From the IMG/VR virus record IMGVR_UViG_3300039412_000320: a stretch of DNA of 64,000 bases. One strand, 5' to 3'. The notes beneath the pieces were generated by a model. It did no database searches. It was not told where the DNA came from and saw only the letters and a program-made list of their open reading frames with translations. This document shows, in pieces, positions 4,665 through 58,630 of the stretch; positions within the stretch are counted from its first letter, which is position 1, and each line of letters starts with the position of its first letter. The stretch is from a virus. Made by a program: the position numbers and the translations under genes.

Positions 4665-4701
4665 ATGAACTTTCTGAAGCACTTATAGGGGGAAAGTTCA
4701 T
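4665..4701 (+). promoter_or_regulatory. RBS/start-codon sequestering hairpin upstream of GIY-YIG gene
   Basis: Perfect 10-bp inverted repeat atgaactttc / gaaagttcat. The 3' arm contains the ATG at 4700 and follows the SD aggggga. Confidence 0.5.
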
Positions 4702-16349: not shown

Positions 16350-16691
16350 TTATGTTTGCGGTGGGGAAGGAACTACAGGGGAGTCTGAGTCGGCATCTAC
16401 GCCATGTCCATCCCCATTTTGACCATCACCTTTCTTTTTTGTAAAAAACCGCCCTAGAGCATTAAATCCATGACCCCCGCAAAATACTCCCATTATCGTA
16501 GGGTAGCTGGGGTCCGTAGTACCGTGTCGTAAGAATGCAATCGCATAAATGACGCTGTGTTCCAACATCAGGAAACAAGTTACGACTGAGGTTCCGAGAA
16601 AGATTAAACGTGAATTTACGTCAGGTTCTTTCAAGGCTCTTTCAAAGAGATTTGTACTGTAAACTCCTAACTTTCTTATCCAGTTGAACAT
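16350..16691 (-). CDS. small membrane protein
   Basis: Hydrophobic segments, start at MFNWIRKL. Confidence 0.35.
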   Translation of the reverse strand: MFNWIRKLGVYSTNLFERALKEPDVNSRLIFLGTSVVTCFLMLEHSVIYAIAFLRHGTTDPSYPTIMGVFCGGHGFNALGRFFTKKKGDGQNGDGHGVDADSDSPVVPSPPQT

Positions 16692-17296
16692 TTTAGGCTC
16701 CTGAGAGCAGCAGTCATTGCCACCCACTCCTCATAGGTAAACCAACGTCCTTTAGCATAGTTGCACCGCTTGCAGCATACTACTAAGTTCTCTAATGTAT
16801 AGGGTAGTTCATTGTTTTTCCTATCTAGGTTGTATCTGTGCCCACTCCTACTGACATCATATTTCTTCCATGAGACGGGAGCCCCGCAGTAGTGGCAAGA
16901 AGTTACAGATATAAAGGAAAGAAGCTGCTCGTAAGTTAAGTCTAATGGTATGTTTCTATGTTTTGCTGTTTTTGTGAGCAAGATAAAGAGGGCCTCATAC
17001 GGTCTTTTTGAAGCTTTACCATTAGTCCAACGGAAAGAACAGCACTTTGTTCCTCCTCCGGTCATAAGTTGATTGTCAGAAACCGTTTTTGTAGTTTTCT
17101 TTTCACATTGGCATTCACAAAGCCAACGACGGTGAAAACGAGTGTAAGTTGCACATTTATAATGAACAGGAGTGGCGGGAGCAAGGACTCTCCAGTTTCC
17201 GAACAACTGCCCTACCCTGTTCATAGGCAAATGATGACCAAGAGCGAAGCGGTTTTTGACAACCGTCCCGCATCCACATTCACACAAGTTTCCCAT
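16676..17296 (-). CDS. HNH endonuclease
   Basis: Cys-rich N-terminus, HRYNLDRKNNELPYTLENLVVCCKRCNYAKG HNH core. Confidence 0.55.
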   Translation of the reverse strand: MGNLCECGCGTVVKNRFALGHHLPMNRVGQLFGNWRVLAPATPVHYKCATYTRFHRRWLCECQCEKKTTKTVSDNQLMTGGGTKCCSFRWTNGKASKRPYEALFILLTKTAKHRNIPLDLTYEQLLSFISVTSCHYCGAPVSWKKYDVSRSGHRYNLDRKNNELPYTLENLVVCCKRCNYAKGRWFTYEEWVAMTAALRSLKCSTG

Positions 17297-17356: not shown

Positions 17357-19843
17357 TTAGCTGGTAGCAGCTTTGGTAGCAGAGGCTTCCTCGTTAACAG
17401 CAACATCTTCGGCGACCAGTACACCCTCGGCAACACGGGTGAAACTAAGGTCTTCGTTGTCTTTATCCACTACGATGAGGTCTCCCATGTTGACTTGTTT
17501 GGTGTTAAGAAAACGGGAAAGCCGCTTCACTACCAGCTTCTCTATTATCCGCTTGAGAGGACGTGCCCCGTTCTTTAAGTCCGTGCCTTGGGTTATCAGC
17601 AGGTCTTTGGCGGCGGGGGTGAACTCCAAGACAAACTGCCGGAGGTCTCGCATCTTTAACACCCGGCTCTGCACCTGTTCGATTTCCAGTTCCACCACCT
17701 GTTTGAGTTGCTTCTTATCCAAGGAGTGAAACACCACTATCTCATCTATGCGGTTGAGGAACTCCGGGGTGAAGCGTTTCTTGGCGGCTTCCAGTCCTGC
17801 TGTCTCCACTTCTTTGTTGAACTCCTCACTGCTCTTTGTGGAAGACCCGGCAAACCCCAATCCACCTCGGGCGAGATATTGCATTTCTCGGGAGCCGAGA
17901 TTTCCCGTCATGATGATGAGGCATTTATCGAAGGTGCTTTGCTTGTTGTCACCCAAGGTAAGTGTGCCTTTGTCAAGTATTCCAAGTAACAAGTTCCACA
18001 GGGCGTCGTTAGATTTCTCAAACTCGTCAAAGAGTAAAAGTGTCAATTTTAACTCTTCGGTGTGGTGGGCATCCAGACTTTCCTGACGTAAGTAGGCTGG
18101 TGTATCCCGGTGTCCTAGATAACCCGGAGGAGAGTTATGTACTTGAAAACAAACCATATAGTATGATTTATCTTTTATGGATAAATCGTACACCATCCCC
18201 TTGTACAGTTCTCGTTCAATCTTTTTTATTCGGGTGTAGATATAGTCATCATCCACATAAGACATACGTTGAATTCCCGAATTTCCCAAGTTTAGAAGGT
18301 TGAGGCTTTTCCCGACTATGCGGAGGTTACTGGCAAACTGTGCTATTTGGTCTCCGGCTACGTATAGCCGGTAACGAGTGGATGCCTTATACCCCCGCTT
18401 ATCCTTCGGGTGTTGCTCCTGCATTTGGACTGCGTACCCCAAGTTATGAAGGAGGAATTGTATCTGGAAAGCCAAAGTTTCGGAGCTTGTGGCGTAGTCA
18501 ATGCGGCGGCAAACAGTCTTCCCCCCATCCCCCAAGATTGCCGTATCTAAAAAGTCGTAGGCTAGTTCTGGGCGTAAGTCGGAGACCCACGCTGGAAAAC
18601 GCTTGCGAAGAGCATGGTCACCAAAAAGGTCAGTCATCATAAGACTTATGGGTCGAGAGGAAAGGTATATCCGATAACTGCTCTTTCGCTCTTTCACCCT
18701 TATGTGAACGTCCCCAAACACCCTGTATATAAGCTCTCTCACCTCTTGAATGCACGGGCTGTCCTGCCCGTGTTTTCCGAATGTAAAATTGATGGATTTC
18801 TTGCTTTTGGAGTTTCCACCTTCGCTAACGTAAAATCCGGCCAAGCGCATAAAATCAGAGCTTACAGGTATAAAGCGGGGGAGCTTTTTTTTCGTCGCCG
18901 TTGACCAGATGTCTTTGTTATCAGACTTAAATCTGGGAAGGCCCCTAGTATATTCGGCTAAGTCGAGGGTTACGTCTTGGAGGGAAGATTTATGGCGAGG
19001 GTATACCACTACATCCCCCGCTTTAAGGTCTCCCGCCGCTATATCTTTAAGATTATTCGGTGAGCAAAACGTGCTGAGGAGCCGTCCCCTCTTTGTCGTC
19101 GCCCGGTTTTTCGTGCATGGGTCCTGAATGGCCCTTATTTCATGCCAAGGAGTGCATCCCACGGGTATGTTGGTGTTTCCAGCCGTTAGTTTTACTATTT
19201 CTCCGGCATATTCGTGGCTATGGGTTTCAATAACAGGGTGCGGTTCCCCATTTTCCCCACTTATGCTAGCGTTTTTTTCGACTTTTTCTATAGGTAGAAC
19301 AGTGCCTCCGGGAAACATCACCCGTGTTCCCGTAATGAAACACCCCACCAATTTGGAAATCTCGTGAGAGTGTTGAAATTCTGCACAATCAACTTTTTTG
19401 AGAGCCTTTTTGGTGCCGAAGAGAAGCTCCGCCATTACTTCAATGATGTAGGTCTTCCCGCAACCGGTGGGACCGAGGAATATTAGATTTCCGACAGGAT
19501 GGTCAGGCGGGGCTAAACCAGCACGGAAGGTTTCGTATGCGTCTACGAGTACCTCAATTGCCCGTGTCTGTCCGACGATAAGATGCTTTAGGCTGCTGGC
19601 AAGTTCTTCCTCAGCCTCGCTCTTGATGTTAGGGTCAAGCCGTTTGCACTGCTTTTTAGGCATTCTTGGCACTGCTTCTCGTCTAAGCATCAGGGTAATT
19701 TCCGGTTCCTCATTACATGATAAGTTCCGTAGTTCGTTTCCTATTTGATGCGTAAAATGCACGGGGTGCGCCCATACTGAAACGCACCCCGTTGACTTGC
19801 GGCAGAGAGAAGGGTGCTTTCTTCCTTTCCCTTCAGTTATCAA
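17357..19843 (-). CDS. Clp-family AAA+ ATPase (ClpA/B/C D2-like) interrupted by an intein; true start possibly the internal Met near 19690
   Basis: Walker A GPTGCGKT. SKLVG[intein]SPPGYLG corresponds to the conserved ClpB SKLIGAPPGYVGY. LLLFDEFEK, GARPLKRII ClpB-like C-terminus. Confidence 0.8.
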   Translation of the reverse strand: MITEGKGRKHPSLCRKSTGCVSVWAHPVHFTHQIGNELRNLSCNEEPEITLMLRREAVPRMPKKQCKRLDPNIKSEAEEELASSLKHLIVGQTRAIEVLVDAYETFRAGLAPPDHPVGNLIFLGPTGCGKTYIIEVMAELLFGTKKALKKVDCAEFQHSHEISKLVGCFITGTRVMFPGGTVLPIEKVEKNASISGENGEPHPVIETHSHEYAGEIVKLTAGNTNIPVGCTPWHEIRAIQDPCTKNRATTKRGRLLSTFCSPNNLKDIAAGDLKAGDVVVYPRHKSSLQDVTLDLAEYTRGLPRFKSDNKDIWSTATKKKLPRFIPVSSDFMRLAGFYVSEGGNSKSKKSINFTFGKHGQDSPCIQEVRELIYRVFGDVHIRVKERKSSYRIYLSSRPISLMMTDLFGDHALRKRFPAWVSDLRPELAYDFLDTAILGDGGKTVCRRIDYATSSETLAFQIQFLLHNLGYAVQMQEQHPKDKRGYKASTRYRLYVAGDQIAQFASNLRIVGKSLNLLNLGNSGIQRMSYVDDDYIYTRIKKIERELYKGMVYDLSIKDKSYYMVCFQVHNSPPGYLGHRDTPAYLRQESLDAHHTEELKLTLLLFDEFEKSNDALWNLLLGILDKGTLTLGDNKQSTFDKCLIIMTGNLGSREMQYLARGGLGFAGSSTKSSEEFNKEVETAGLEAAKKRFTPEFLNRIDEIVVFHSLDKKQLKQVVELEIEQVQSRVLKMRDLRQFVLEFTPAAKDLLITQGTDLKNGARPLKRIIEKLVVKRLSRFLNTKQVNMGDLIVVDKDNEDLSFTRVAEGVLVAEDVAVNEEASATKAATS
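18134..19342 (-). mobile_element. Intein (403 aa) with LAGLIDADG homing endonuclease inside the GAPPGYVG motif of the Clp ATPase
   Basis: Starts CFITG (Cys1) directly after LVG, ends VHN followed by S (+1 Ser). Internal LAGFYVSEGG and LDTAILGDGG LAGLIDADG motifs. Confidence 0.8.
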
Positions 19844-21370: not shown

Positions 21371-23584
21371 CTATGAACTCAGTAGTTGCCAGCTTAGGAA
21401 CGCCCCGGTAGTGACGGTAATGCCGTTCAAGTTTGCTCCATACAGATTGATGACGTATCCCGCCATGGTCGGAGTCACGTCGTTGGTGTGGGTCTCCGAG
21501 TAAACCTGCTGCCAATCGAGATTCGTCGGGTCAGTGCTGTACCAGTAAGTCCGGGTGCTGCTGTTGTCATGAATCTTCATCCAGAAAAGTGGCGGGAAGA
21601 TGTACATGGAAGTTGCAACATTGTGGGAGAAGGCGCTGGTAGTGGTGTAGTAGTCTATTTCCAATACCGGCACAGCGTTGTTTCCCTTGCCGATGTCAAA
21701 CGTCTTGAATTTCGTCCCGTCCGACAAAGCAATACCCTCCCACCAATTGCCGTTGTAAATGGTACTGGTGCTGTACATGAACATGGGGGGTTTGATGATG
21801 AGAGCCGCAATGACCGTCCAAGGAGTGACCGGGAGGTTTACACCATAGAAGTGGATGTTGTCCGCCCCGTTACCTGTGGCACTGAGTGCCAGCATGTTAT
21901 TCTGGGCTATCAGCGTGGACGTTCCTTGGTTGACCCAAAAGAAGCTGGAGGTGGTCGGCGGGGTGAGGCCAGAAAACGGGTAGGTGCTGCCGCTAGATGG
22001 CCCAGTGTAGCCGGTATATCCAGTAATGTTCGGCCCTGTGTAACCCGTATACCCCGTCGCACCTGTGGAAGACGCCGAACCGGGCGGGCCAGTATCTCCA
22101 GTATAGCCGGAATACCCCGTATACCCCGTAAAATTCCCCGGCCCGGTATAGCCCGTATAACCAGTTGTTCCAGCGCCCGTGTAACCGGTGTAGCCGGTGA
22201 ACGCTCCCGGCCCGGTTGGGCCGGTGTATCCAGTGTAACCGGTGAAATTGCCCGGACCCGTATATCCGGTGAACCCGCTATAGCCGGTATACCCGCTGGG
22301 TCCCGTGTAGCCTGTGGGTCCCTGTGCTCCCACGGGCAGCACGGAGCAGATGACCGAGGCATAGTAGGCGGTGGCGGCAGGGTCTTGGGTATTGAAGTTC
22401 GCCACGATGGGTGCCACGGGGATGCTTGCCGACGATGCGTAGCCGAGGCAGAACTGCTGCCCGTCAAACCCCGAGCCGCCACTGAAGGTGATGGTGTTGG
22501 TGTAGGGAGAGCTAAGGGGAGGGGTATTGAACGAGAATGCGTAGGAGACCGCCGCCCTGTTGCAGCAGAACGAGCCGAAGACCGTGGCGGCGGTATTGAT
22601 GCTGATGGTGGAGGACGTGAGCGTGCCTGCACCGTTGTTAATCGTGGCTATGCCGCTGGCGAAGACGAGCGAGGGCGTACCGGCGACCTCCACCACGCTC
22701 CAATACATATTGCCGTTGTTGACGCCGACGCTTCCTGCCCACGTCTCGCCATCACCGCCGATCACCGTCCTTGACCACACGGTGACGACGATGTCCGAGC
22801 CGGACGAGTAGGAAGTCTGCTGCGTCAAGCCTGCCGGTGGGGTGACCGTCCCCCCGTAGTAGTTGCCCTCAAGGAAGAAGAGGAGCGTGTTCCCGGCTAC
22901 CGGCGTGGTAGCCAAGGTGATGGTGAACGAGGTGGAGTTGGACTTGACAGCCTGCGCCTGCACCACGGCTGGAGGCGTGGCAGAGAGGTATCCCGTATAA
23001 CCGGTAAAGCCCGTGTAGCCTGTGAACCCACTGTATCCCGTGTACCCAGAGTAACCTGTGAAGTTACCCGGCCCGGTATAGCCAGTGTACCCGCTCGGGC
23101 CGGAATATCCGGTGTACCCTGTAAACCCAGTAAAGTTGCCGGGGCCGGTATACCCCGTGTAGCCACTTGCTCCCGTGTAACCCGTATACCCAGTGAACCC
23201 TGTGAAGTTACCGGGGCCGGTATAGCCCGTGAACCCGGTGTAGCCGGTCGGCCCAGAATACCCTGTATAACCCGTAAAATTGCCGGGGCCAGTGTAGCCG
23301 GTATACCCAGTTGGCCCAGTCGCTCCCGAGGAACCCATCTGAACTTGGGAGTAGGTGCCCGGCGACCCCACGGTGACCAACTGCCAGAAGGTCTGGTCGG
23401 AGCGGACGTACACCATCATGCCGACTTCTTGACGAAGCTGGGGGATAGCGTCACGGGCGGTGTAGTCGTCTACCTCACGCCATCCCCCGAGGCCGTAGAT
23501 AGCCTCGTGCGTCGGGAAGGTGTCGGCGTCGGTGAACGGGACAACCTGCGCAGCTACGTTTACTCCTGTGAGTGGTGTCGGCAT
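21371..23584 (-). CDS. Tail fibre protein with collagen-like G-X-Y repeats
   Basis: Two blocks of GYTGYTGPGNFTGYTGYSGPTGYTGFTG triplet repeats. Ser/Thr/Asn-rich beta-type C-terminus. Strong SD upstream. Confidence 0.7.
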   Translation of the reverse strand: MPTPLTGVNVAAQVVPFTDADTFPTHEAIYGLGGWREVDDYTARDAIPQLRQEVGMMVYVRSDQTFWQLVTVGSPGTYSQVQMGSSGATGPTGYTGYTGPGNFTGYTGYSGPTGYTGFTGYTGPGNFTGFTGYTGYTGASGYTGYTGPGNFTGFTGYTGYSGPSGYTGYTGPGNFTGYSGYTGYSGFTGYTGFTGYTGYLSATPPAVVQAQAVKSNSTSFTITLATTPVAGNTLLFFLEGNYYGGTVTPPAGLTQQTSYSSGSDIVVTVWSRTVIGGDGETWAGSVGVNNGNMYWSVVEVAGTPSLVFASGIATINNGAGTLTSSTISINTAATVFGSFCCNRAAVSYAFSFNTPPLSSPYTNTITFSGGSGFDGQQFCLGYASSASIPVAPIVANFNTQDPAATAYYASVICSVLPVGAQGPTGYTGPSGYTGYSGFTGYTGPGNFTGYTGYTGPTGPGAFTGYTGYTGAGTTGYTGYTGPGNFTGYTGYSGYTGDTGPPGSASSTGATGYTGYTGPNITGYTGYTGPSSGSTYPFSGLTPPTTSSFFWVNQGTSTLIAQNNMLALSATGNGADNIHFYGVNLPVTPWTVIAALIIKPPMFMYSTSTIYNGNWWEGIALSDGTKFKTFDIGKGNNAVPVLEIDYYTTTSAFSHNVATSMYIFPPLFWMKIHDNSSTRTYWYSTDPTNLDWQQVYSETHTNDVTPTMAGYVINLYGANLNGITVTTGAFLSWQLLSS

Positions 23585-35411: not shown

Positions 35412-36061
35412 TTATCCGACTGGCAGAGGTCCACATTGAGGAAGACTACGACGGCGAGAAGATTCTCCGTCAGATAGAGAAGTACGCTCGCAACTGTTAC
35501 AAGTCCGAAGCCAAGACCACGGACATGGATGGCACGAAGGCGTTCGTGAAGAAACTTCTCCATACCCTCAAACATGAGGGCATTGCCGACCACCATATGA
35601 TTACCGTGCGGGTAGTCTGTGACCGGGGCATAAGCCATGAAATAGTCCGGCACCGCATCGCCGCTTATCTGCAAGAGTCTACCCGCTATTGCGATTATAC
35701 CAAGGCGGGGCAGATTCAAGTCATCGACATCAAACAGTTCATGACCTCGGCGCAGTTCGATGTCTGGACCTATGCCATGAACGAAGCGGAAAAAGCTTAC
35801 AATGAGCTTCGCCGCTTGGGGGCACGCCCGGAGATTGCTCGGTCGGTCCTTCCCAACAGTCTCAAGACCGAAATCATCATGAGCCTGAACCTCACAAGTT
35901 GGCGAAACTTCTTCAAGAAGCGGGCCTGCAACGCCGGGGCGCACGTTCAGATGAAAGAGATTGCTGTACCACTACTCAAGGAGTTCCAGAGAGTCATTCC
36001 CGTGATTTTTGATGACTTGATACCAATAATCATGCCGGAGCGACCAAAGGAGACCAGTTAG
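35408..36061 (+). CDS. thyX: Flavin-dependent thymidylate synthase ThyX
   Basis: ThyX signature RHRIAAYLQESTRY (RHRx7S). Confidence 0.8.
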   Translation: MIIRLAEVHIEEDYDGEKILRQIEKYARNCYKSEAKTTDMDGTKAFVKKLLHTLKHEGIADHHMITVRVVCDRGISHEIVRHRIAAYLQESTRYCDYTKAGQIQVIDIKQFMTSAQFDVWTYAMNEAEKAYNELRRLGARPEIARSVLPNSLKTEIIMSLNLTSWRNFFKKRACNAGAHVQMKEIAVPLLKEFQRVIPVIFDDLIPIIMPERPKETS

Positions 36062-36114
36062 TCTAAAGACCCCAGCACATTTGACTATGCAATCCTTATA
36101 CAGAAGGTATAGCA

Positions 36115-36768
36115 ATGAATTACCAGAAAATCTACTACCAGCTTATAGATAAAGCTAAGAACAGCCCTCTTGAGCTAAGTAGATATTATGAATCTCATCA
36201 CATAATCCCCCAATCCTTGGGTGGTAGCTCTCGGAAAGACAACTTGGTGTGGCTAACTGGAAAGCAGCACTTCATTGCTCACCGTCTTCTAGCCAAGTTT
36301 ACCGAAGGTAGAAACCGATGTAAAATGATTCTGGCTTTGCATAGATTTCTACATAGCAAGAACTGTGAGCTTCATATAAATTCTAGGGAGTACGAGTATA
36401 TAAGGCAGCAAGCCGCCATTTCTATAAGTATCCTAAACACAGGCAGAAGGTTTTCTGATAGAGCAAAAGAGAATATGTCCACAGCACAGCGGGAAAGATA
36501 CTCCTCTGTTCCTACTCATTGGAAGGGGCGACATCATAGTGACAAGACCAAAGAGAAAATGCGGGAAGCCCAAGGGGGAGCACGTAACCCCCAGTTTGGG
36601 AAATCTCGGACCAAGGACGAAAAACTCAGAATATCTTCGGCATTAAGGGGAAGAAAATTGTCTCCCGAACAAGTATTAGAAAGATGTTCTCGGCGTCATA
36701 GTCCTAAAAGCAGAAGAAAGATTAGCCAGAGCATAAAGGAGTGGCATGTTCAACGAAAAATGGGATAG
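36115..36768 (+). CDS. HNH homing endonuclease with NUMOD-like repeats, inserted between thyX and dCMP deaminase
   Basis: HHIIPQSLGGSSRKDNLVWLTGKQHFIAH HNH motif. C-terminal repeated R.SP..RRKIS motifs. Confidence 0.65.
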   Translation: MNYQKIYYQLIDKAKNSPLELSRYYESHHIIPQSLGGSSRKDNLVWLTGKQHFIAHRLLAKFTEGRNRCKMILALHRFLHSKNCELHINSREYEYIRQQAAISISILNTGRRFSDRAKENMSTAQRERYSSVPTHWKGRHHSDKTKEKMREAQGGARNPQFGKSRTKDEKLRISSALRGRKLSPEQVLERCSRRHSPKSRRKISQSIKEWHVQRKMG

Positions 36769-37213
36769 GCGATTTTTAGAACTAGCAGCACACATAGCCT
36801 CATGGTCAAAAGATACAAGTACTAAGACGGGGGCGGTAATCGTGCGCCCGAACAAGTCTGTCGTGGGTGTGGGATTCAACGGCTTTCCGCAGGGAGCCAA
36901 GGATGACCCCGAGCTTTACGCTGACCGGACGTACAAATATGACCACGTGGTTCACTGCGAAATCAACGCCCTGCTTTTCGCCAATAGACCGGTAAACGGG
37001 TGCGTTCTTTACATGTGGCCTTTCATGAGTTGCATCCGTTGTGCCGTGCAGATGGCACAGGCAGGCATCTTCCACTTTGTGGCCCCCAACCCATCCGCCG
37101 ACGCTCTGACCCGCTGGACAGCTTCCTTCAATGCTACGAGGAAATTCCTCGGTGAGTGTAACCTCGGCTTGACCGAAATCGGGATGGCGGAAGATTATGT
37201 GAGGAAACCTTAA
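36746..37213 (+). CDS. dCMP deaminase
   Basis: HCEINALLFA ... PCIRCAVQMAQAGI (H(A/C)E + PCxxC zinc site). Confidence 0.75.
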   Translation: MFNEKWDRRFLELAAHIASWSKDTSTKTGAVIVRPNKSVVGVGFNGFPQGAKDDPELYADRTYKYDHVVHCEINALLFANRPVNGCVLYMWPFMSCIRCAVQMAQAGIFHFVAPNPSADALTRWTASFNATRKFLGECNLGLTEIGMAEDYVRKP

Positions 37214-37496
37214 CGGAGGTGGGTTTTGACTAAAGCGCAAGTGAGACTTAGCGAGATGACTCTCCGAAAGATAGCCTCGGGAGAGACGGTGACTATCCGC
37301 ATAGCCGAGGTTGCGGAGCTTTCCGTATCTTTAGCCCCAGCGCCCGGCAGTCCCCCGCAGCCTCAGACCGCTGGTGAGCGGTTTGTAGACCAGATATTCG
37401 GAAAAGATGGGGGAGACTTCGGTGATTTGTTTTCAAGCCTTTTCGGAAAACACCCACCCAAATAACAGATTTTGGACCCCTTATTAGGGGGAAATT

Positions 37497-38123
37497 ATGG
37501 ATTTCATGTGGATTGACGAAGACCGGCTGGCTACCCTTTACGAGGGAATGAGGATAATGGAGAGCCTCAGTCACGGAAAAGTGTGGGAGATGGAGATTTT
37601 CCTGTACGGCATGACCTCTGACCGGGGTGTCATCAGTGCCGCCAAGGAATCCATCATTGACCTTTTGGAGGAGTACTGGGACGAAGACGGTGAAACCACC
37701 CTTCGAGAGGAAGAGATTGCCCTGAACGAGGTTGCCATCGCTATCCACCTTAACTCCGACACCATCTACACTCTGTTGGGCAGGCACGGACTTGATGTCT
37801 ATCAAATGGATTTCGCCTACCTTGGAAAAGAGGGAGAAGGGGTCCGGGTTACCTCTTTCAGCACCGGAGCCGGAAGCCGAACCCGGCTAATGTTCAGCGG
37901 TCTCAAAAACATCGTCCTTGCCGAGGGAGACATTCATCTGCGGGAATATTTGACCCAGCAGAAGACCGGCCAACCCATGACAATCAATAAGCGAGTGGAG
38001 AGGGGTCAATCCGCCGTGGCTCCCCCGACCCCCACGACTCCACAGGCTCCTCCCACGGGTGGAACTCCTCCGGTACAAAACATTGCCAGTGTTGTGGAGA
38101 AATTCCTTGACCGCCGCCGCTGA
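37497..38123 (+). CDS. hypothetical protein
   Basis: 208-aa ORF, SD upstream. Confidence 0.4.
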   Translation: MDFMWIDEDRLATLYEGMRIMESLSHGKVWEMEIFLYGMTSDRGVISAAKESIIDLLEEYWDEDGETTLREEEIALNEVAIAIHLNSDTIYTLLGRHGLDVYQMDFAYLGKEGEGVRVTSFSTGAGSRTRLMFSGLKNIVLAEGDIHLREYLTQQKTGQPMTINKRVERGQSAVAPPTPTTPQAPPTGGTPPVQNIASVVEKFLDRRR

Positions 38124-38433
38124 AATCCCGGATACTAAAATTGGCATCGCTTCCGTGATGCCCAATCACGTCAAAGTGCAGCTTCGCTATTTGACCAAGG
38201 AAGCCAAGCACTTGAGAAGCTTTCTCTTATCAGGATACACCGGCATTGGGGCACCCTACATGGAAGAGGTGTGCATTCTCATGCCCCACATGAGGGTGTT
38301 TCCCGTGATAGAGTGCTTTTTACCCCCCTTCGAGACCCTCAAGCAAGAGGGAGTGGTCCCCGAGGATGCCGAACTGCAAAGCTACCGCATCCTTGACCAT
38401 GATGAATTAACTCTCGCCTATATTTTAAGATAA
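38059..38433 (+). CDS. hypothetical protein
   Basis: 124-aa ORF overlapping the previous one; uncertain. Confidence 0.3.
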   Translation: MELLRYKTLPVLWRNSLTAAAEIPDTKIGIASVMPNHVKVQLRYLTKEAKHLRSFLLSGYTGIGAPYMEEVCILMPHMRVFPVIECFLPPFETLKQEGVVPEDAELQSYRILDHDELTLAYILR

Positions 38434-38478
38434 TGGAAAAATGAACTTTCCAAAGTATTTATAGGAGTAGAGTTCAAA

Positions 38479-39327
38479 ATGTTCATTTATCTTATCGTTA
38501 ATCATAAGACCGGCAAATATTATGTCGGTCAGCATAAGGGAAACAATCTTAGAAAGTATCTTCAAACCAAGTTATCCGCTGCTCGGCATCAGCACAATGG
38601 AAGTTCTCACCTTTTCAATGCAATGAGAAAATATCCACAGTCTTCTCTCTGGTCTATTTACGCCCTACGTTCCGATATCCAGAATAAAACAGAGCTTGAC
38701 CAGACCGAAAGAGACTTTATTAAGTTCCTGCGGTCGCAGGACCCTGAGTGTGGGTACAACATATGCCGGGGAGGAGAGGGATTTACAGGGCCGCATTCTG
38801 AGGAATGGAAGCAAAATCAAAGCAAAATGAAAATGGCTTGGCACAGAGACCCTAGAAATTCTGAAACTAAAAGACTTTCTAATATAAAAATTAGTGAAAC
38901 CAAGAAATTAAATAGTAGACCAAAGATAAACAAGGTCTGTCCGGTGTGTGGTAAATCATTTTCTGTTTCATTTGGAAGGAAAGAAAAAATATACTGTTCA
39001 CATTTGTGTTATTCTAAACAACCAAAAAACGAAGAAAGTGAAATAAAAAGGTTAAAAAGTCTTCGTAGAGCTATTCAATCCCCACAATGTTATACTAATA
39101 GGTCAAATGCACAACTCCTTAGACGCAAAAGAGAGAAAGAACAAGGCATTAAACCTGTGATGCCCATCCGTATATTAATGCCAAAAAGGATAAAAAGACC
39201 ATACCTTTTAACTCCTAAACATTTGGAAGCTTCAAAGAACCTAGGTAAAAGTAACTTAGGAAACCATCAACGTTGGCATATAAATCGAGGAATTTCAGTT
39301 TTAAGATGCCAACATTGTCAAATATGA
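38479..39327 (+). CDS. GIY-YIG homing endonuclease (paralogue of 4700-5407)
   Basis: MFIYLIVNHKTGKYYVGQHKG. Shares its upstream 40 nt, including aaatgaactttc, with the 4700 copy. Confidence 0.75.
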   Translation: MFIYLIVNHKTGKYYVGQHKGNNLRKYLQTKLSAARHQHNGSSHLFNAMRKYPQSSLWSIYALRSDIQNKTELDQTERDFIKFLRSQDPECGYNICRGGEGFTGPHSEEWKQNQSKMKMAWHRDPRNSETKRLSNIKISETKKLNSRPKINKVCPVCGKSFSVSFGRKEKIYCSHLCYSKQPKNEESEIKRLKSLRRAIQSPQCYTNRSNAQLLRRKREKEQGIKPVMPIRILMPKRIKRPYLLTPKHLEASKNLGKSNLGNHQRWHINRGISVLRCQHCQI

Positions 39328-39358
39328 TTTAATTTTCCCATAAAACTGAGTATTTTAT

Positions 39359-39574
39359 ATGGGAGGTCCTATGGACAAGCCTGCATGTAAGCATTGTGCG
39401 CCAGCCGGTAGCTGTGATGGATACCGGCATAGTACTTGCCCGGAATGCGGGTGCTACGTTTGCGCCGGATGCGGCAGCTATGACCCCCGACTATTGGCTC
39501 CCGAACCGACCAAGCACAAAGTTTGTCCGACCTGTAACGGGTCGGGGCTAGTTCCGGTACCCAAGGAGAGTTAA
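39359..39574 (+). CDS. small Cys-rich protein
   Basis: CKHCAPAGSCDGYRHSTCPECGCYVCAGCGSY. Confidence 0.35.
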   Translation: MGGPMDKPACKHCAPAGSCDGYRHSTCPECGCYVCAGCGSYDPRLLAPEPTKHKVCPTCNGSGLVPVPKES

Positions 39575-39846
39575 TGGCAACCCGCAAACATGACGCCTTA
39601 AACATGGAGACGTTGATTGACTTCGCCAAAGTCTTAGCAAACTGGAAGAAATTCTGTGTGCAAAGCGTCTCCGTCGCCAACCCCAAGGGGGTGGAAGCCA
39701 AGCCATGGGAGCTTGGCGGGATGCAGTGGGAGTCTTTACAGACTTACCATCTGATAGAGGCATTACAGGTGTCTCTCTGGAACCACATGAAGATGGTGGG
39801 TCAGATTCAAGAATTCAAAGCAAGGGGGAAGAGAAATGCTAAGTGA
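39574..39846 (+). CDS. small hypothetical protein
   Basis: 90-aa ORF, ATGA-type coupling. Confidence 0.3.
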   Translation: MATRKHDALNMETLIDFAKVLANWKKFCVQSVSVANPKGVEAKPWELGGMQWESLQTYHLIEALQVSLWNHMKMVGQIQEFKARGKRNAK

Positions 39847-40110
39847 AACTGCCTTGGTTGTAATCTGTATCATCTTCGTGAGTGGAGAGTTCCAAAATGC
39901 TTCGAGCGCTGGCTCTGTACCTGTGCCTGATGCATCGGGAACAGGTTAAGTCCATCATCCAGCTTTCAGCAATGCAGCCCCCGGCTCCCATCGTCATCAC
40001 CAAGGAAATGCTGGATGACCCCCGGCTCATGTGGGTAAAAGACCTCCCACAGGTGAAAGAAGCCATAGGGAAAGCTGAGAAGAAATCAGAATAAAGCAGT
40101 ATCTATAAAC

Positions 40111-41031
40111 ATGGAACAATTCAAAAAAAGTGCCACAGCAGAGACTATATATTCCACTGGAGCACAACGAGACAGTCGTATAGGCAAGGGAGCATTTCAC
40201 TGGATGCCCTGGACAGCCGTTAAGATGGTTTCTCGCATCTATGAAATAGGTAACAAACAACGAGACCTTCTCTCAGGTGGAACAGGTAATGGAGACACCC
40301 GTAATTGGGAGAACGGGATGAAGATTGCGGATTTGCTTGATAGCGCTATAAGGCATATAACCGCTCATTTAGAGGGTGACAGAAGTGAACCCCATCTTTC
40401 ACAAGCTATGTGGAACCTGCTTAACGCCCTACAAACATCTATATGGGTATACACCGGACAGAGGCCCCCAGAACTTAATAATCTCCCCGACCATATCCAC
40501 CCTTGGAAGCCGGGAAATCCGTCTCCATGTCCGCTTAGTTCTCAAGAGATAGAGTGGCTAGAAACCTGGGGAATACAAAGGAACGAGTTTCCAGACCTTA
40601 ATGACCCCGTACAAAGTGCTTCTCATCTCGCTGCCCTCGTAGATGGAGAAGGGACCATTTCAATCGTAAAAAGGGAAACAAAGCGCCGGGAGGCTTACCG
40701 TCTATCCATAAGGGTCTATAATACTTCAGAAACCCTCAAAAATTACCTTGAGAAAAGATGGGGAGCGACTACGGTTAGAAGAAAAGGGCGAAGGAAAATC
40801 CACAAGGACTGCTATACGATGATATGGACGAGTTCAAAAGCTGAAGATATTCTTCGTAGGATATGGCCGTACTTAATCATCAAGACCGCCCAAGCAAACT
40901 TGGCAGTGGCTTTTCAAACTTTGGTAAAAAACATCAATCCTGGATGCAAAGGAATACCAGAAAAAACTCTGCAACAACTGCGGTTTATGAAGGAGGAGAT
41001 AAATCGTATGAACGAAAAAGGACCCAAGTAA
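40111..41031 (+). CDS. Fusion of a nucleotide pyrophosphohydrolase-like N-domain with a LAGLIDADG endonuclease domain
   Basis: N-terminal GAQRDSRIGKGAFHWMPW..AIRHITAHLEGDRSEPHLSQAMWNLLNAL resembles the dATP/dGTP diphosphohydrolase N-terminal domain. C-terminal LAALVDGEGTIS LAGLIDADG motif. Confidence 0.45.
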   Translation: MEQFKKSATAETIYSTGAQRDSRIGKGAFHWMPWTAVKMVSRIYEIGNKQRDLLSGGTGNGDTRNWENGMKIADLLDSAIRHITAHLEGDRSEPHLSQAMWNLLNALQTSIWVYTGQRPPELNNLPDHIHPWKPGNPSPCPLSSQEIEWLETWGIQRNEFPDLNDPVQSASHLAALVDGEGTISIVKRETKRREAYRLSIRVYNTSETLKNYLEKRWGATTVRRKGRRKIHKDCYTMIWTSSKAEDILRRIWPYLIIKTAQANLAVAFQTLVKNINPGCKGIPEKTLQQLRFMKEEINRMNEKGPK

Positions 41032-46327: not shown

Positions 46328-46638
46328 TGCTACCCGTACAAGTGTTCAGGGCAGAGGTAGTCCGGCTGGAGAACGAACTTCAATCAGCGAAGATACGGCT
46401 GGCGGAGGCGGAGTTGCGGTGCTGCCATGCGTGGAGTAAACCGGTGTATGACCCCATCATCCACGAAGCGTACCATATCGCTGGCGACCCGCCCGGCACC
46501 ATGGGGGTTGACCGGCAACTTCCCACGGATGTGCCCCGGCAGGAAATTCCCCGTTGGATAAGGACTTGTGGACGGTGCGGGGTGGTGGAGACAACGCAGC
46601 AAACCAAGGAAAATATCACAAAGGTACCGGTGTTCTAA
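46300..46638 (+). CDS. hypothetical protein
   Basis: ORF. Confidence 0.35.
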   Translation: MVSQEMGGVMLPVQVFRAEVVRLENELQSAKIRLAEAELRCCHAWSKPVYDPIIHEAYHIAGDPPGTMGVDRQLPTDVPRQEIPRWIRTCGRCGVVETTQQTKENITKVPVF

Positions 46639-47576
46639 TGGAATTCTACGGAAAGCTCAAACAAGCGTTGGTGGAGATTGGGGAGGTTGCCCCCAATAGC
46701 CTGATTCTCGCCTTCGCCTCCGGGAGTTGGCAGCATGGTGCCCGGATGGACGACAAGGCCGACCTTGATGTGTCCGGCGTGTTTGTGGGTCGCCCGGAAG
46801 AAGAACTCCAACTTGACAACGAGAACCCTCGTAAAATGGGTCATGCGAGCGCTAGCACGGCAGGAGACAAGCGCAAGAACACCAAGGCGGACGTTGACAT
46901 CAAAGCTTACTCCCTACGCCGTTGGGCGGGTCTGGCGCTTAAGGGCAATCCTTCGGCGCTTTCCTTCCTGTTTGTCCCGGACAGCATCAAGGACCTATCC
47001 TTGGAGCCAAAGGCACGCTGGTCCTGCCCCTATGATGCGCAGCAGTGTGAGTATCCAAGCTGCATAAGCGACCATGAGGGCTACCGGGACAGCACGTGCG
47101 TGAGGCGTAACCGGGAGGCGCATACAAACACGGTGTGGGACACCATGATTCTGCCCAACACCAATGACTTCCTGTCCGCACGGGCGGCGAAAGCCTTTAT
47201 CGGGTTGGCGGATAACCAGTTCCACCGGATGCTTGGGGAGGGCACGGGTAAGCACGGGACCCGGAAAGCCGAGAAGGAAGAGTACGGCTACGACCCCCAA
47301 GCGGCTATGCACATGATTCGAGGCATCCAAGAATGTCTTGAGCTTTTGCGGACCGGCAGGATGACTTTCCCCCGACCGGAGAAGACCCTCCTGCTTAACA
47401 TTCGCACCGGAAAACTTGGTCTAAAAGAAGTATTAGACCTATATGGGGTTTTACGGAATGAAGTACCCGAAGCAGAGAAGAACACCCCGCTTCCCCCGGA
47501 ATGTGACCGGGATAAGGTCAGCAAGCTCGTCGCCGGGGCCATCGTGAAACATTGGAAAGAGAGGAAGTGGCTATGA
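46638..47576 (+). CDS. Pol-beta-fold nucleotidyltransferase with helical C-terminal domain
   Basis: N-terminal GSWQHGARMDDKADLDVSGVFVG (GS..DxD). Confidence 0.5.
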   Translation: MEFYGKLKQALVEIGEVAPNSLILAFASGSWQHGARMDDKADLDVSGVFVGRPEEELQLDNENPRKMGHASASTAGDKRKNTKADVDIKAYSLRRWAGLALKGNPSALSFLFVPDSIKDLSLEPKARWSCPYDAQQCEYPSCISDHEGYRDSTCVRRNREAHTNTVWDTMILPNTNDFLSARAAKAFIGLADNQFHRMLGEGTGKHGTRKAEKEEYGYDPQAAMHMIRGIQECLELLRTGRMTFPRPEKTLLLNIRTGKLGLKEVLDLYGVLRNEVPEAEKNTPLPPECDRDKVSKLVAGAIVKHWKERKWL

Positions 47577-52334: not shown

Positions 52335-52409
52335 TAGCAAGATATTCCAGAGTCCTCTAACGGTAGGAGAACCGGCTCTGACCCGGTTAATGAGAGGTTC
52401 GAGTCCTCC
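52335..52409 (+). tRNA. tRNA-Gln(CTG) candidate (U1-A72)
   Basis: accgg-ctCTGac-ccggt perfect anticodon arm, ctct/ggag D-stem. The acceptor has two mismatches. Confidence 0.45.
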
Positions 52410-52460
52410 CCTCGGAGCCAAGCTAGCCCGGAAAATGTGGGTTCGAGTCCCACCGGATAA
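52410..52460 (+). pseudogene. tRNA 3'-half fragment (T-arm plus 3' acceptor only)
   Basis: gtggg-ttcgagt-cccac-cggataa with no 5' half upstream. Confidence 0.4.
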
Positions 52461-52519
52461 TCGCATGGAGTAGCCTTCCCGTCAGGCAGAACGCCCCCAG
52501 CGACCCGTCATTCAATGGT

Positions 52520-52655
52520 AGGATACCGGGGATTGATTCAGGGAGAAGGTTGCGGGTTCGAGTCCCGTCGCCCCGCCATGCGGGGCGTAGCTCAATGGTA
52601 GAGCGTCTCCCATGATGCAGCCGGAAAAACGGGGTTCGAGTCCCCGTAGGACATG
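52520..52655 (+). pseudogene. Cluster of tRNA fragments / degenerate tRNA
   Basis: T-arm gcggg-ttcgagt-cccgt + cgccccg, then ccatg, then cggggcg-ta-gctc-aatggta-gagc with no pairing anticodon arm, then another T-arm cgggg-ttcgagt-ccccg. Repeated catggta motifs. Confidence 0.4.
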
Positions 52656-52749
52656 GTACAGCGTAGCCTCATGGTAGCTGTGACCAAGATAACCATGGTA
52701 CTCTTGGTCTTGACCTTCGTTTATTTGGATAAGACACCGGCGTGAGTTT

Positions 52750-52839
52750 AGGGGTGACGGGCAATCTGGTTCGGCCCAGCGGTCTCCAAAACCGTCTTCC
52801 TTCGGGATACTGGGGGTTCAAATCCCTCCACCCCTGCCA
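52750..52839 (+). tRNA. Class II (long variable arm) tRNA with CCA anticodon
   Basis: aggggtg/cacccct, gcggt-ctCCAaa-accgt, 16-nt variable arm cttccttcgggatact, ggggg-ttcaaat-ccctc, CCA encoded. Confidence 0.5.
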
Positions 52840-53882: not shown

Positions 53883-54434
53883 ATGGGATACGCTGACGTA
53901 CTTGTACTAGACATGAACTGGATACCCGTGGGCTTCATGGGCTGGCAGAACGCCGTCAAGCTCTGGTTCGAGGACCGTGCCAAGATTGTCAAGGAGGACG
54001 AGGGCGGGAAGGTCCTGCACTCACCGTCCTTTGAAATGGGCATGCCAAGGGTGATAGTCGTTCGCAACGCTTGGCATCGCCGTAAGAAGCAGTCCGTCCC
54101 CTGCACCCGGCGCAACCTGTTAGTGCGTGACAATGCAACATGCCAGTACTGCGGCAAGGTGGTCCACACCTCGGAATACACGATTGACCACGTCATCCCG
54201 CTTTGCCAGAAGGGCAAGTCCGACTGGGACAACCTTGCCATCGCCTGTATGCCGTGCAACAAGGAAAAGGCCGGACGTACCCCGGCGCAGGCGGGCATGA
54301 CCTTGCTCAGCAAGCCCTATACGCCGAAGCCCACGGACCCCCGCTTCAACTTCAAGCTGCATATCAGCAAGATAAGGAACGAGTGGAAAGATTACGCACC
54401 GTACCTATACTGGAATGTTGTACTTGATAAATGA
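53883..54434 (+). CDS. HNH endonuclease
   Basis: CQYCGKVVHTSEYTIDHVIPLCQKGKSDWDNLAIACMPCNKEK. SD aaggagg. Confidence 0.65.
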   Translation: MGYADVLVLDMNWIPVGFMGWQNAVKLWFEDRAKIVKEDEGGKVLHSPSFEMGMPRVIVVRNAWHRRKKQSVPCTRRNLLVRDNATCQYCGKVVHTSEYTIDHVIPLCQKGKSDWDNLAIACMPCNKEKAGRTPAQAGMTLLSKPYTPKPTDPRFNFKLHISKIRNEWKDYAPYLYWNVVLDK

Positions 54435-54467: not shown

Positions 54468-55265
54468 GTGGAGCCATATGGGGAAGTATACATTATCGTA
54501 AACCAAGTCAACAACAAGGTATATATCGGGCAAACCATAAGAACCCTGCACGAGCGATGGCTGGCTCATTGTAGGAGAGCCAAAGCGGGTGGGACAAATT
54601 GTGCATACTTCTATAATGCCATCCGAAAATATGGAGAAGGTAGCTTCAAAGCCTATCGTATAAATGTTGCCTTCTCCAAAGAAGAATTGGATACCCTTGA
54701 GGTCTCCTATATTGAAAAGTTTAAGGCGTGCGACCCTGAATATGGATACAACTCAACTCTTGGAGGCGGAGGGGTAGTTGCGAATGAGGCTACTCGTCAA
54801 AAATTCAAAGAGGCGAACAAAGGCGAAAGAAATCCAATGTTTGGTAAGCATTGTTCAGAGCAGACTAGACAAAGGATGAGTGCCTCCCAAAGGGGACACT
54901 CAGTCCCAGAAAGCACTAGAAAGGCTGTTGCAGAATCAAACAGGAGAAGAGCTGGAAAACCACAAGCTCCCCACAAGTCTGGCTGGAAACACTCCGATAC
55001 CAGTAAGCAAAAAATGCGGGAAGCATTAAAAGGAAGAACCTCGGCTTGGAATAAAGGCAAAAAAATGCCAGAAGGCTTTGGTGAAAAAATAGCCAAGGCA
55101 AAGCGTGGGAAACCACGACCGGTGCATGTAATAGCAGCCTTGAGGGAAGCTAATAGAAAAAGACCACCTGTGCGCTGGTTATGTAAAGATGGCGTAGCAA
55201 TCAAAATTGCGGCATCCGAAGTTATTAACCGCCTCTGTGATGGTTGGAGGCTAGGAAGGAAATAA
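54468..55265 (+). CDS. GIY-YIG homing endonuclease with NUMOD-like repeats
   Basis: EVYIIVNQVNNKVYIGQTIRTLHERWLAH. Repeated R(N/H)P..GK and SGWKHSDTSKQKMREA motifs. Upstream ataaatgaact motif. Confidence 0.7.
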   Translation: MEPYGEVYIIVNQVNNKVYIGQTIRTLHERWLAHCRRAKAGGTNCAYFYNAIRKYGEGSFKAYRINVAFSKEELDTLEVSYIEKFKACDPEYGYNSTLGGGGVVANEATRQKFKEANKGERNPMFGKHCSEQTRQRMSASQRGHSVPESTRKAVAESNRRRAGKPQAPHKSGWKHSDTSKQKMREALKGRTSAWNKGKKMPEGFGEKIAKAKRGKPRPVHVIAALREANRKRPPVRWLCKDGVAIKIAASEVINRLCDGWRLGRK

Positions 55266-55674
55266 ACAAGTTTACGCCCCCGTGAGCGGAGATGGACATC
55301 GCAACAGTTTCCTAAACTGTCTATGCCGAAAGGCATCGCAGGTTCGAGTCCTGCCGGGGGTACCAAATTTACGGGGGAATCGTCTAACGCAAAAGGCACC
55401 CGTCTTCTAAACGGGCAATCCGGGTTGGACTCCCGGTTCCCCTTCCAATTCCCAAGGAACACCATATGCTGCTCGATTGCGATAAGCGAAACGTGAGGGT
55501 CGTAGCCTCCTTGAACGATGCCAAGGGGCACTCGGAGAACCTCGGGCGTGTCGTATGGGCGCAGGTAGACGACCGCCCGGAGTGGCTGTACAAGGTCTAC
55601 CCTGGAGGGCGGGTAATCCAGTACCCCGTGGCGAAGACCTGGACGAAGGGTCGCCCGGAGGGATTGGAGACCGC

Positions 55675-58033: not shown

Positions 58034-58630
58034 GTGGGGGTGATTATGCCTGACGTAATTTGTAGTGGTTGCAACAAAACGTTTTCAAAGTCTGAAAATC
58101 GGATACAAACGTGGTTAAAACGTAGGAATCAGAGGCACTTTTGCAGTAAAAAATGTCGGCGGGAATTAACTGTAAAGACCCACACAGTGGGGTGTTCCGT
58201 ATGCAAAAACTACTTCATCAAGGTCGGGATGCCAACTGATAGGATAAAAAACCACTATTGCCCCAACTGTCGAGGTAAAGTTGAATTTAAGTGTTGCATC
58301 TGTGGGAAATCATATAAACGATATAAATCGGCCATTCGTTTCCGAAAAAGAAAGAAGAACTATTGTTCAAAACAGTGCAAAAATGTTGGACAACGCATGG
58401 ATTGGGGTGTCATTACTAATCGAGCTAGTCTTAGATTAAAGTGGGTTCGTCAGTTCGGCAAGGCTGCCCTTATTTGTGTTCGATGTAAGTATGACAAACC
58501 CTATAATATCGAACTTCACCACAAAATTTATGTTGTAGATGGGGGAAGTAACAATCCCGATAACCTAGAACCACTATGTAAAAATTGCCATGGAGAAGAA
58601 CACTACAAAGTCAAGCCGGACGATGATTGA
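58034..58630 (+). CDS. HNH homing endonuclease with Zn fingers
   Basis: IELHHKIYVVDGGSNNPDNLEPLCKNCHGEEH. Confidence 0.6.
   Translation: MGVIMPDVICSGCNKTFSKSENRIQTWLKRRNQRHFCSKKCRRELTVKTHTVGCSVCKNYFIKVGMPTDRIKNHYCPNCRGKVEFKCCICGKSYKRYKSAIRFRKRKKNYCSKQCKNVGQRMDWGVITNRASLRLKWVRQFGKAALICVRCKYDKPYNIELHHKIYVVDGGSNNPDNLEPLCKNCHGEEHYKVKPDDD

Follow-up and report, generated by a model that had tools for sequence, protein, structure and literature searches.

A phage tRNA-Trp gene with an extra variable arm, and the recurrence of such arms among phage tRNAs

Textbooks restrict the long variable arm of tRNAs to Leu, Ser, bacterial Tyr and selenocysteine (Sec). The gene described here breaks this rule. 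It occupies 90 nt (positions 52750-52839) of a 64,000-nt stretch of viral DNA, the IMG/VR record IMGVR_UViG_3300039412_000320, referred to in its whole length as the window. It combines a complete Trp identity with an extra arm, and tRNAs of this kind recur across many unrelated phage contigs and tRNA arrays. Judged from the sequence, it is very likely a functional tRNA-Trp that reads UGG, is charged with Trp by a bacterial-type tryptophanyl-tRNA synthetase (TrpRS) and carries a structurally maintained insertion. An initial annotation, made from the letters alone, had called the fold class II and proposed either a Leu- or Ser-derived tRNA recoding UGG or a Trp tRNA with an atypical variable arm. 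Our analysis favours the latter, on the full set of TrpRS identity elements, an acceptor stem resembling that of Escherichia coli trpT and a body that scores best on Trp profiles.

ARAGORN called a 90-nt tRNA-Trp(cca) at exactly this position on the forward strand, and the Rfam tRNA model RF00005 matched it with 43.6 bits (gathering score 29). The RF00005 alignment placed the anticodon loop where ARAGORN did and took the additional bases for an insert within the variable region. The minimum free energy (MFE) fold is a cloverleaf with an additional UCC/GGA hairpin capped by UUCG. Its z-score relative to shuffles is an unremarkable -0.42, and folding energy alone is no proof; the case for a real tRNA rests on the covariance model, the orthologues with compensatory changes and the location within a cluster of 27 tRNAs. 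The full layout is AGGGGUG-AC-GGGC-AAUCUGGUUCG-GCCC-A-GCGGU-CUCCAAA-ACCGU-CUUCCUUCGGGAUACU-GGGGG-UUCAAAU-CCCUC-CACCCCU-G-CCA (Table 1), with the acceptor pairs A1-U72, G2-C71, G3-C70, G4-C69, G5-C68, U6-A67 and G7-C66. Every structural detail of the initial annotation, from the acceptor stem and the anticodon arm with T33 and A37 to the 16-nt arm with its UUCG and the T arm, is present in the sequence. An alternative fold with a different anticodon, a possibility that it had raised, was proposed for this gene by none of ARAGORN, Infernal and the MFE fold.

The class II label applies in part. Class II variable regions exceed 10 nt and form a stem-loop, and the variable region of this gene has 16 nt, with a 3-bp stem (52798-52800 paired with 52805-52807) and a UUCG tetraloop (52801-52804), instead of the 4-5 nt loop of class I, which is typical of tRNA-Trp without being an identity element. 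The D arm does not conform: in E. coli tRNAs for Leu, Ser and Tyr the D stem has 3 bp and the D loop is of class II type, whereas GGGC/GCCC forms four Watson-Crick pairs here, as in class I. The gene is class II only by its extra arm, and the stem of that arm has just 3 bp. An intron was ruled out, since the extra bases sit in the variable region rather than in the anticodon loop and form a small conserved hairpin. Three clusters, all of them on the forward strand, make up the 27 tRNA genes of the window. A scan found no promoter or terminator consensus beside the gene, so it is probably transcribed together with its cluster.

The determinants of bacterial Trp identity are the CCA anticodon, G73, G2-C71, G3-C70 and G4-C69, with A1-U72 and G5-C68 as minor elements and U31-A39 as a predicted one (PMC9976931). 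The gene contains all of them (C34-C35-A36, G73, A1-U72, G2-C71, G3-C70, G4-C69, G5-C68 and U31-A39). In an alignment with E. coli trpT, the reference being taken from genome coordinates, six of the seven acceptor pairs, G73 and CCA were identical and the difference was the variable-region insertion; a blastn search with the tRNA against E. coli genomes returned no match. Both genes have the CUCCAAA loop, G73, the pairs A1-U72 to G5-C68, U31-A39, the 7/5 branch, a 4-bp D stem and an encoded CCA. They differ in the variable region (5 nt in trpT, 16 here), the D loop (8 nt against 11) and position 8 (U8 against A8).

The identities usually associated with a long arm fit less well. Leu identity requires A73, and Tyr identity requires A73, U35 and G1-C72 (PMC9976931), whereas the gene has G73, C35 and A1-U72. 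In bacterial tRNASer, G1-C72 and G2-C71 are absolutely conserved and the seryl-tRNA synthetase (SerRS) reads the size of the arm (PMC9976931), whereas here pair 1-72 is A-U and the stem of the arm is 3 bp long. On these identity elements, which the initial annotation had suggested checking, the sequence excludes Leu and Tyr and disfavours Ser. A tRNA-Sec or an allo-tRNA, with an 8/5, 8/4 or 9/3 branch and, for Sec, a UCA anticodon, was ruled out by the standard 7/5 acceptor/T branch and the CCA anticodon.

The body of the tRNA gave the same picture. With the anticodon masked and the arm removed, its 10 nearest neighbours among about 640 phage tRNAs were all Trp, the nearest being those of L003/L006, L047 and L048 among the matches listed. 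Isotype profile hidden Markov models (HMMs), built from about 900 collected tRNAs, scored the gene at 39.4 bits for long-arm Trp (a set defined below), 32.6 for standard Trp, 29.5 for Tyr, 28.5 for Ser and 23.0 for Leu. When the anticodon loop was wholly masked, long-arm Trp still came first (29.1 bits), followed by Tyr (22.6), standard Trp (22.2) and Ser (19.9). The gene is also the sole Trp tRNA that ARAGORN found in the otherwise broad tRNA set of the window.

A metagenome scan for orthologues, which required the T arm and the acceptor 3' strand of the window gene and left the extra arm free, found them in four contigs (L256-L259), in related tRNA clusters of similar order. These Trp tRNAs, of 88 and 91 nt, have the acceptor stem, A8, the D arm and the anticodon stem in common with the window gene. 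The arm stem covaries, with UCC/GGA in the window against GAC/GUC and AGC/GCU in the orthologues around a constant UUCG loop, and so does the T stem (GGGGG/CCCUC against GUGGG/CCCAC). These compensatory changes indicate that the gene has been selected as a folded tRNA and is not a decaying copy, and they show that selection keeps the arm as a helix. The same covariation would be expected if an unstructured insertion were merely harmful, so it is no proof that the arm has a function of its own. In one of the contigs, L258, an 88-nt Trp(CCA) occurs together with one of 76 nt, and long (85-89 nt) Asn(GTT), Gln(CTG) and Arg(ACG) tRNAs lie beside standard-length copies with the same anticodon in L257 (6991-7350), L258 (4473-5143) and L259 (3294-3653).

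We defined a set of long-arm tRNA-Trp genes by a CCA anticodon, G73, usually U72, U31-A39 and a variable region of at least 10 nt forming a hairpin. All these features are present in the window gene, and the profile of the set gave its best body score. A pattern scan of IMG/VR for the CUCCAAA loop followed by a long variable region, with ARAGORN validation, retrieved at least 52 distinct Trp(CCA) tRNAs of at least 82 nt. A second scan, of one genome per species and with a pattern imposing U72-G73, added about 20, of which 15 were in loci with 7-20 tRNAs per 8 kb, mostly on contigs of metagenome-assembled genomes; this density resembles that of phage or mobile tRNA arrays. At least 74 distinct long-arm Trp tRNAs were thus collected, mostly from phage contigs or dense tRNA arrays. 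Among the matches listed, G73 and U31-A39 were each found in 68 of 74, and the variable regions spanned 10-25 nt and folded at -3.06 kcal/mol, against -0.64 kcal/mol for shuffles. The viral subset (n=53), in which the scan pattern left positions 72 and 73 free, had G73 in 47 and U72 in 38 of its listed members, while class II tRNAs from the same loci had C72-G73 (Ser), A73 (Leu) or C72-A73 (Tyr). Within two equal-length subsets, compensatory changes affected 3/3 and 3/4 pairs of the arm helix and 100% and 89% of the cells were paired, a pairing somewhat overstated because both subsets were picked by fold. A standard Trp tRNA was present within the same fetched locus for just 2 of 69 long-arm Trp tRNAs among the matches listed, so the long form is usually the sole Trp tRNA visible in its cluster.

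The members of the set do not look alike throughout. Some consist of a standard Trp body with an insertion, such as that of L048, which can be aligned over its whole length with mycobacteriophage Trp tRNAs of 76 nt; others have class II-like D arms, one being 81.6% identical to a roseophage tRNA-Ser. This suggests a heterogeneous set with more than one origin. For the window gene, an insertion into a Trp body is favoured, given its Trp-type acceptor stem and 4-bp D stem. Two cultured jumbo phages carry related genes, annotated without comment: Brevundimonas phage Kabachok (L260 2474-2555) has an 82-nt tRNA-Trp with a class II-like D arm and an 8-nt variable region, and Caulobacter phage CcrBL9 (L261 2496-2582) has an 87-nt tRNA-Lys(CUU), whose D arm is also class II-like and whose variable region has 15 nt. 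Both phages are usable experimental systems.

To place these counts, a prevalence scan accepted short and long variable regions alike, in the same order as the long-only scan, and its first 120 matches served as an unbiased sample. It contained 102 validated Trp(CCA) tRNAs, with a variable loop of 4-5 nt in 96 and of at least 10 nt in 3 (~3%). The initial annotation had considered such a tRNA unusual, and this frequency bears it out, as does the literature: no description of a long-arm tRNATrp was found in searchable full text, including reviews of non-canonical tRNAs and the metagenomic surveys of Mukai and colleagues, with subscription-only literature outside the scope. Among the standard-length phage Trp tRNAs, pair 1-72 was A-U or G·U in 59/96 and G73 was present in 95/96, the same 1-72/73 signature as in the long-arm set.

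Extra arms were not confined to Trp. About 4% of the class I tRNAs in the prevalence sample had at least 82 nt, including Asn (5/48), Ile (6/43), Met (7/82), Cys (3/35) and Lys (3/53). A standard-length tRNA with the same anticodon lay in the fetched locus of 27/138 extra-arm class I tRNAs, against 142/1284 standard ones (odds ratio 2.0, p = 0.005). Extra-arm tRNAs are recurrent in phages and apparently undescribed. In the same sample the arm was kept in 71/71 tRNASer, whereas only 45/93 tRNALeu reached 82 nt. This contrast fits the dependence of the synthetases, as SerRS needs the arm and the E. coli leucyl enzyme (LeuRS) does not (PMC9976931), and phage tRNALeu seems often to have lost its class II arm. 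The tRNA-Leu(CAG) of the window (29933-30011, +), of 79 nt, has no extra arm.

The window itself contains a second extra-arm class I tRNA, an Arg(CCT) located downstream (Table 1). Its variable region, CUAUGCCGAAAGGCAUC, forms a 5-bp stem with a GAAA loop, and its body scores highest as Arg, at 34.1 bits, the next isotype reaching 24.1. The D stem, of 3 bp and class II-like, resembles that of the tRNA-Ser(GGA) of the window, and the gene has G1·U72 and A73. At the same cluster position, L257 and L259 carry an Arg(CCT) of 88 nt whose arm differs, with a GCGC/GCGC stem and a GUAA loop. Long isotypes also accumulate in some viral contigs: L029 (Phe 82, Lys 88, Cys 87, Met 86 and Trp 85 nt, among many), L127 (Val 86, Pro 86, His 87, Gln 87 and Trp 84 nt) and L038 (Val 89, Pro 85 and Lys 89 nt). 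Other loci contain repeated tRNA-like genes of 93-95 nt (L037 155-579, L049 10749-11173, L116 3843-4267 and L131 1747-2705), with an identical acceptor stem and D arm (TGCGAGCGTAGTTCAACGGTAGAAC…) and differing, poorly formed anticodon and variable regions.

Codon usage bears on the meaning of UGG. It makes up 2.0% of the codons in the 22 long open reading frames (ORFs) of the window, a normal to high usage, and no in-frame stops occur in these ORFs. The 810-aa ORF at 30761-33193 (-) has the shoulder and repeat domains of the major vault protein (MVP), with 41% identity in LR756500 and LR756501, uncultured huge-phage genomes of 462 and 735 kb. Four of the five UGG positions of this MVP-like protein align with W in the LR756500 homologue (41.6% identical), the remaining one facing F. 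In the alignment with LR756501, two of the five face W, two face Y and one faces M. The conserved Trp of the thymidylate synthase ThyX (…nltsWrnff…) is also encoded by UGG. In this small sample, the alignments suggest that the meaning of UGG is unchanged, and the usage check envisaged in the initial annotation thus gave no hint of reassignment.

Charging would depend on the TrpRS of the host, or on a phage enzyme encoded outside the window. The bases read by TrpRS are those of the anticodon, the discriminator and the upper acceptor stem, all of them intact and away from the variable region. In that region, an insertion of 11-12 nt, folding as a 3-bp hairpin with a UUCG tetraloop, sets the gene apart from ordinary Trp tRNAs. 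Extra-arm tRNAs are already handled by the ribosome and EF-Tu. Class Ic synthetases bind their tRNA across the dimer, and the bacterial tyrosyl enzyme (TyrRS) naturally takes a tRNA with an extra arm (PMC5370408); among paralogues, it is the closest to TrpRS. On these grounds, we infer that TrpRS tolerates the arm sterically.

Several observations weigh against a Trp-charged, functional tRNA. Position 8 is A8, where U8 is near-universal in tRNAs. SerRS, too, relies mainly on G73 and an extra arm, and some serylation would be compatible with the sequence. Once the anticodon loop is masked, the standard-Trp profile falls just below Tyr (22.2 against 22.6 bits), and the isotype classifier, with a held-out accuracy of 61% and small margins, lends weak support. 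The best GenBank phage match over nt 28-80 is the class II tRNA-Tyr of mycobacteriophage Wildcat, which has a similar CCUUCGGG arm; this likeness may reflect ancestry or convergence on a stable C(UUCG)G hairpin. Neither a TrpRS gene nor any other aminoacyl-tRNA synthetase or tRNA-modifying enzyme turned up when about 50 ORFs of the window were scanned with Pfam; near the tRNA-Trp gene the scans gave just homing endonucleases, the RlaP nucleotidyltransferase and genes of nucleotide metabolism. Finally, artificial insertions in variable loops, the V-Spinach tRNAs cited in PMC7590224, reportedly leave no more than marginal tRNA activity.

Part of this evidence would suit a dual identity, in which a tRNA charged chiefly with Trp has a minor serylated fraction and causes low-level ambiguous decoding of UGG during infection. 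G73 and the extra arm do stand beside the full Trp identity set, and engineered double-identity tRNAs are known (PMC9976931), but we regard this as very unlikely in view of A1-U72, the 3-bp arm, the 4-bp D stem and the absence of an evident benefit; conserved Trp residues are also kept as UGG, although low-level ambiguity would be invisible to such an alignment.

It is slightly less probable still that the gene is not chiefly a translation adaptor, serving instead as a decoy or sponge for a host tRNA nuclease or persisting as a decaying pseudogene in a recombination-prone cluster. All its helices are intact, changes in the orthologues are compensatory rather than random, the identity elements and the encoded CCA are kept, and no other Trp tRNA was found in the broad set of the window. 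These features argue against such a reading, even though the cluster is rich in homing endonucleases and tRNA-like fragments and A8 is unusual. Defences that cleave tRNAs can be overcome by phage tRNAs, and in one such case, that of the tRNATyr of phage SP15 and Retron-Eco7, the variable loop mattered (PMC12673091). A decoy role would be compatible with translation.

The least probable alternative is the recoding first proposed, extended to any Ser-, Leu- or Tyr-type class II tRNA whose anticodon changed to CCA, so that mischarging would misincorporate at or recode UGG: the extra arm and G73 are the two main SerRS determinants, tRNASer(CGA) is by direct inspection one base change away from CCA, some long-arm Trp tRNAs have Ser-like D arms (including the one close to roseophage tRNA-Ser), Tyr and Ser are the next-best isotype profiles and nematode nev-tRNAs offer a precedent (PMC3333845), but pair 1-72 is A-U and not the G1-C72 of tRNASer (the long-arm Trp set having U72, not C72), the arm stem has 3 bp against about 5-7 bp by direct reading of the tRNASer arms of the window, the D stem has 4 bp, and UGG, at normal to high usage, falls at conserved Trp or aromatic positions.

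For the tRNA-Trp that we favour, the arm could be neutral beyond the folding of the insertion or, speculatively, adaptive in conflicts between phage and host over tRNAs. Counter-defence or self-marking is plausible because earlier work ties variable loops to such conflicts: the tRNATyr of SP15 requires its longer variable loop to neutralise Retron-Eco7 (PMC12673091), the MenT3 toxin recognises its tRNASer substrate through the long loop (PMC11162799), and tRNA arrays have been discussed as anti-defence elements (PMC12803027). A broader proposal, which we hold only tentatively and think more doubtful than not, is that the arm is an adaptive feature, specific to phages, which class I tRNAs such as those for Trp, Arg, Asn, Gln, Lys, His, Cys and Met have gained, and that it would provide escape from tRNA-targeting nucleases or toxins of the host or a mark of 'self'. 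Such a mark would let the phage deplete the tRNAs of the host while sparing its own. If so, gain and loss of arms would be a general axis of the arms race between phages and hosts, limited by the tolerance of each synthetase.

The architecture resembles several known systems without matching any of them. With bacterial class II tRNAs (Leu, Ser, Tyr) it shares a stem-loop between the anticodon and T arms, and with the tRNATyr of bacteria and phages (Wildcat) an arm of 1-2 unpaired 5' nucleotides, a 3-bp stem and 3-4 unpaired 3' nucleotides; it differs from class II tRNAs in its Trp anticodon, discriminator and 1-72 pair, in its 4-bp D stem and in an arm shorter than that of tRNASer. Nematode nev-tRNAs (PMC3333845) and other non-canonical eukaryotic variable-arm tRNAs (Hamashima 2016) likewise join an extra arm to the anticodons of class I amino acids. 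However, nev-tRNAs are eukaryotic and have a Leu body and identity that mismatch the anticodon, whereas the body, identity elements and anticodon of this phage gene, of bacterial type, are all Trp. Allo-tRNAs, selC* tRNACys and the 8/4 phage tRNAHis and tRNASer (Mukai 2017, PMC5389517) are also odd architectures mined from metagenomes, some in phage clusters and with long variable arms. Those tRNAs have 8/4 or 9/3 branches and Ser-type identity, against 7/5 and Trp here, and Trp goes unmentioned in that paper. The tRNATyr of SP15 is comparable in that the variable loop of a phage tRNA is unlike that of the host, the longer loop being required to evade Retron-Eco7 (PMC12673091); it differs in being class II already, and no defence system or nuclease is linked to the window gene.

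If these tRNAs are charged correctly, TrpRS and other synthetases for class I tRNAs would tolerate an extra arm in nature, which would be of direct use in the design of tagged or orthogonal tRNAs. It is a testable question why such arms are kept in phages and apparently not in the core tRNA sets of cells, with a possible tie to tRNA-targeting defence. For annotation, genes of this type should be called Trp and not flagged as signals of recoding.

Table 1. Coordinates of the extra-arm tRNA genes, their parts and other annotated features of the window
Feature	Position	Strand	Evidence
Complete tRNA-Trp(CCA) gene, 90 nt, encoded 3' CCA	52750..52839	+	ARAGORN; Rfam RF00005; MFE fold
Acceptor 5' strand AGGGGUG	52750..52756	+	pairs with CACCCCU 52829-52835
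A8-C9, D arm (GGGC/GCCC, 4 bp; 11-nt loop AAUCUGGUUCG with G18-G19), A26	52757..52778	+	Rfam alignment, MFE fold
Anticodon arm GCGGU-CUCCAAA-ACCGU; U33, A37, U31-A39; anticodon CCA 52786-52788; loop 52784-52790	52779..52795	+	ARAGORN, Rfam, MFE
16-nt variable region CUUCCUUCGGGAUACU = CU-UCC-UUCG-GGA-UACU	52796..52811	+	MFE fold, orthologue covariation
T arm GGGGG-UUCAAAU-CCCUC	52812..52828	+	Rfam alignment, MFE fold
Acceptor 3' strand CACCCCU (52829-52835), discriminator G73 (52836), encoded CCA (52837-52839)	52829..52839	+	sequence
tRNA-Arg(CCT), 90 nt, second extra-arm class I tRNA	55276..55365	+	ARAGORN; Rfam 47 bits
HNH homing endonucleases near the tRNA-Trp gene	53883-54434; 58034-58630		Pfam
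GIY-YIG/NUMOD3 homing endonuclease	54468-55265		Pfam
RlaP-type 'RNA repair pathway' nucleotidyltransferase	46554-47576		Pfam
NUDIX protein	33678-34211	+	Pfam
ThyX	35408-36061	+	Pfam
dCMP/cytidine deaminase	36746-37213	+	Pfam
Protein with dATP/dGTP diphosphohydrolase N-terminal domain	40111-41031	+	Pfam

No nucleotide-level match to GenBank phages was found by megablast for the 10-kb neighbourhood of the tRNA; the window was placed among huge phages by similarity at the protein level alone, to LR756500 and LR756501. Genes for HNH and GIY-YIG/NUMOD3 homing endonucleases are unusually dense in the window (3158-3946, 4700-5407, 16676-17296 (-), 36115-36768, 53883-54434, 54468-55265 and 58034-58630), and several of them lie inside tRNA clusters. 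Upstream of the tRNA-Trp gene, 52529-52627 (+) gives a sub-threshold Rfam match to YrlA, a tRNA mimic of the Y RNA-like kind, with 41.9 bits (E = 4.5e-8) where the gathering score is 69. A T arm comes first in it, followed by a GC hairpin and a D arm; those parts of related contigs that were fetched contained no such element. Two tRNA-like fragments at 52421-52470 and 52588-52660 (+), not called by ARAGORN, both have a CCGGAAAA-N-GGGGUUCGAGUCCCC module (T arm), and the second matches part of the tRNA model with 26.3 bits. Recombination between tRNAs may have left them behind, or they may be pieces of the Y-RNA-like element. The adjacent tRNA-Gln(CTG) at 52346-52420 (+) is a weak call, at 33.3 bits in Rfam; its acceptor stem contains several mismatches, and it may be degenerate. 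The Ser(CGA) called by ARAGORN at 30606-30692 (+) coincides with the only tRNA-Sec match in the window, to the Rfam model at 30606-30689 (47.1 bits against a gathering score of 47).

Further upstream, a nucleotide-metabolism block at 33678-41031 (+) may be related to modified DNA bases. Neither Rsr nor RtcB was found in the window with the RlaP-type nucleotidyltransferase. At 17357-19843 (-) lies a ClpB-like AAA+ ORF that contains an intein, which has a homing endonuclease domain of the LAGLIDADG type. Two other long ORFs are a 2025-aa one at 6857-12934 (+), in which a nucleotidyltransferase is the only recognisable domain, and a 737-aa one at 21371-23584 (-), which has collagen triple-helix repeats.

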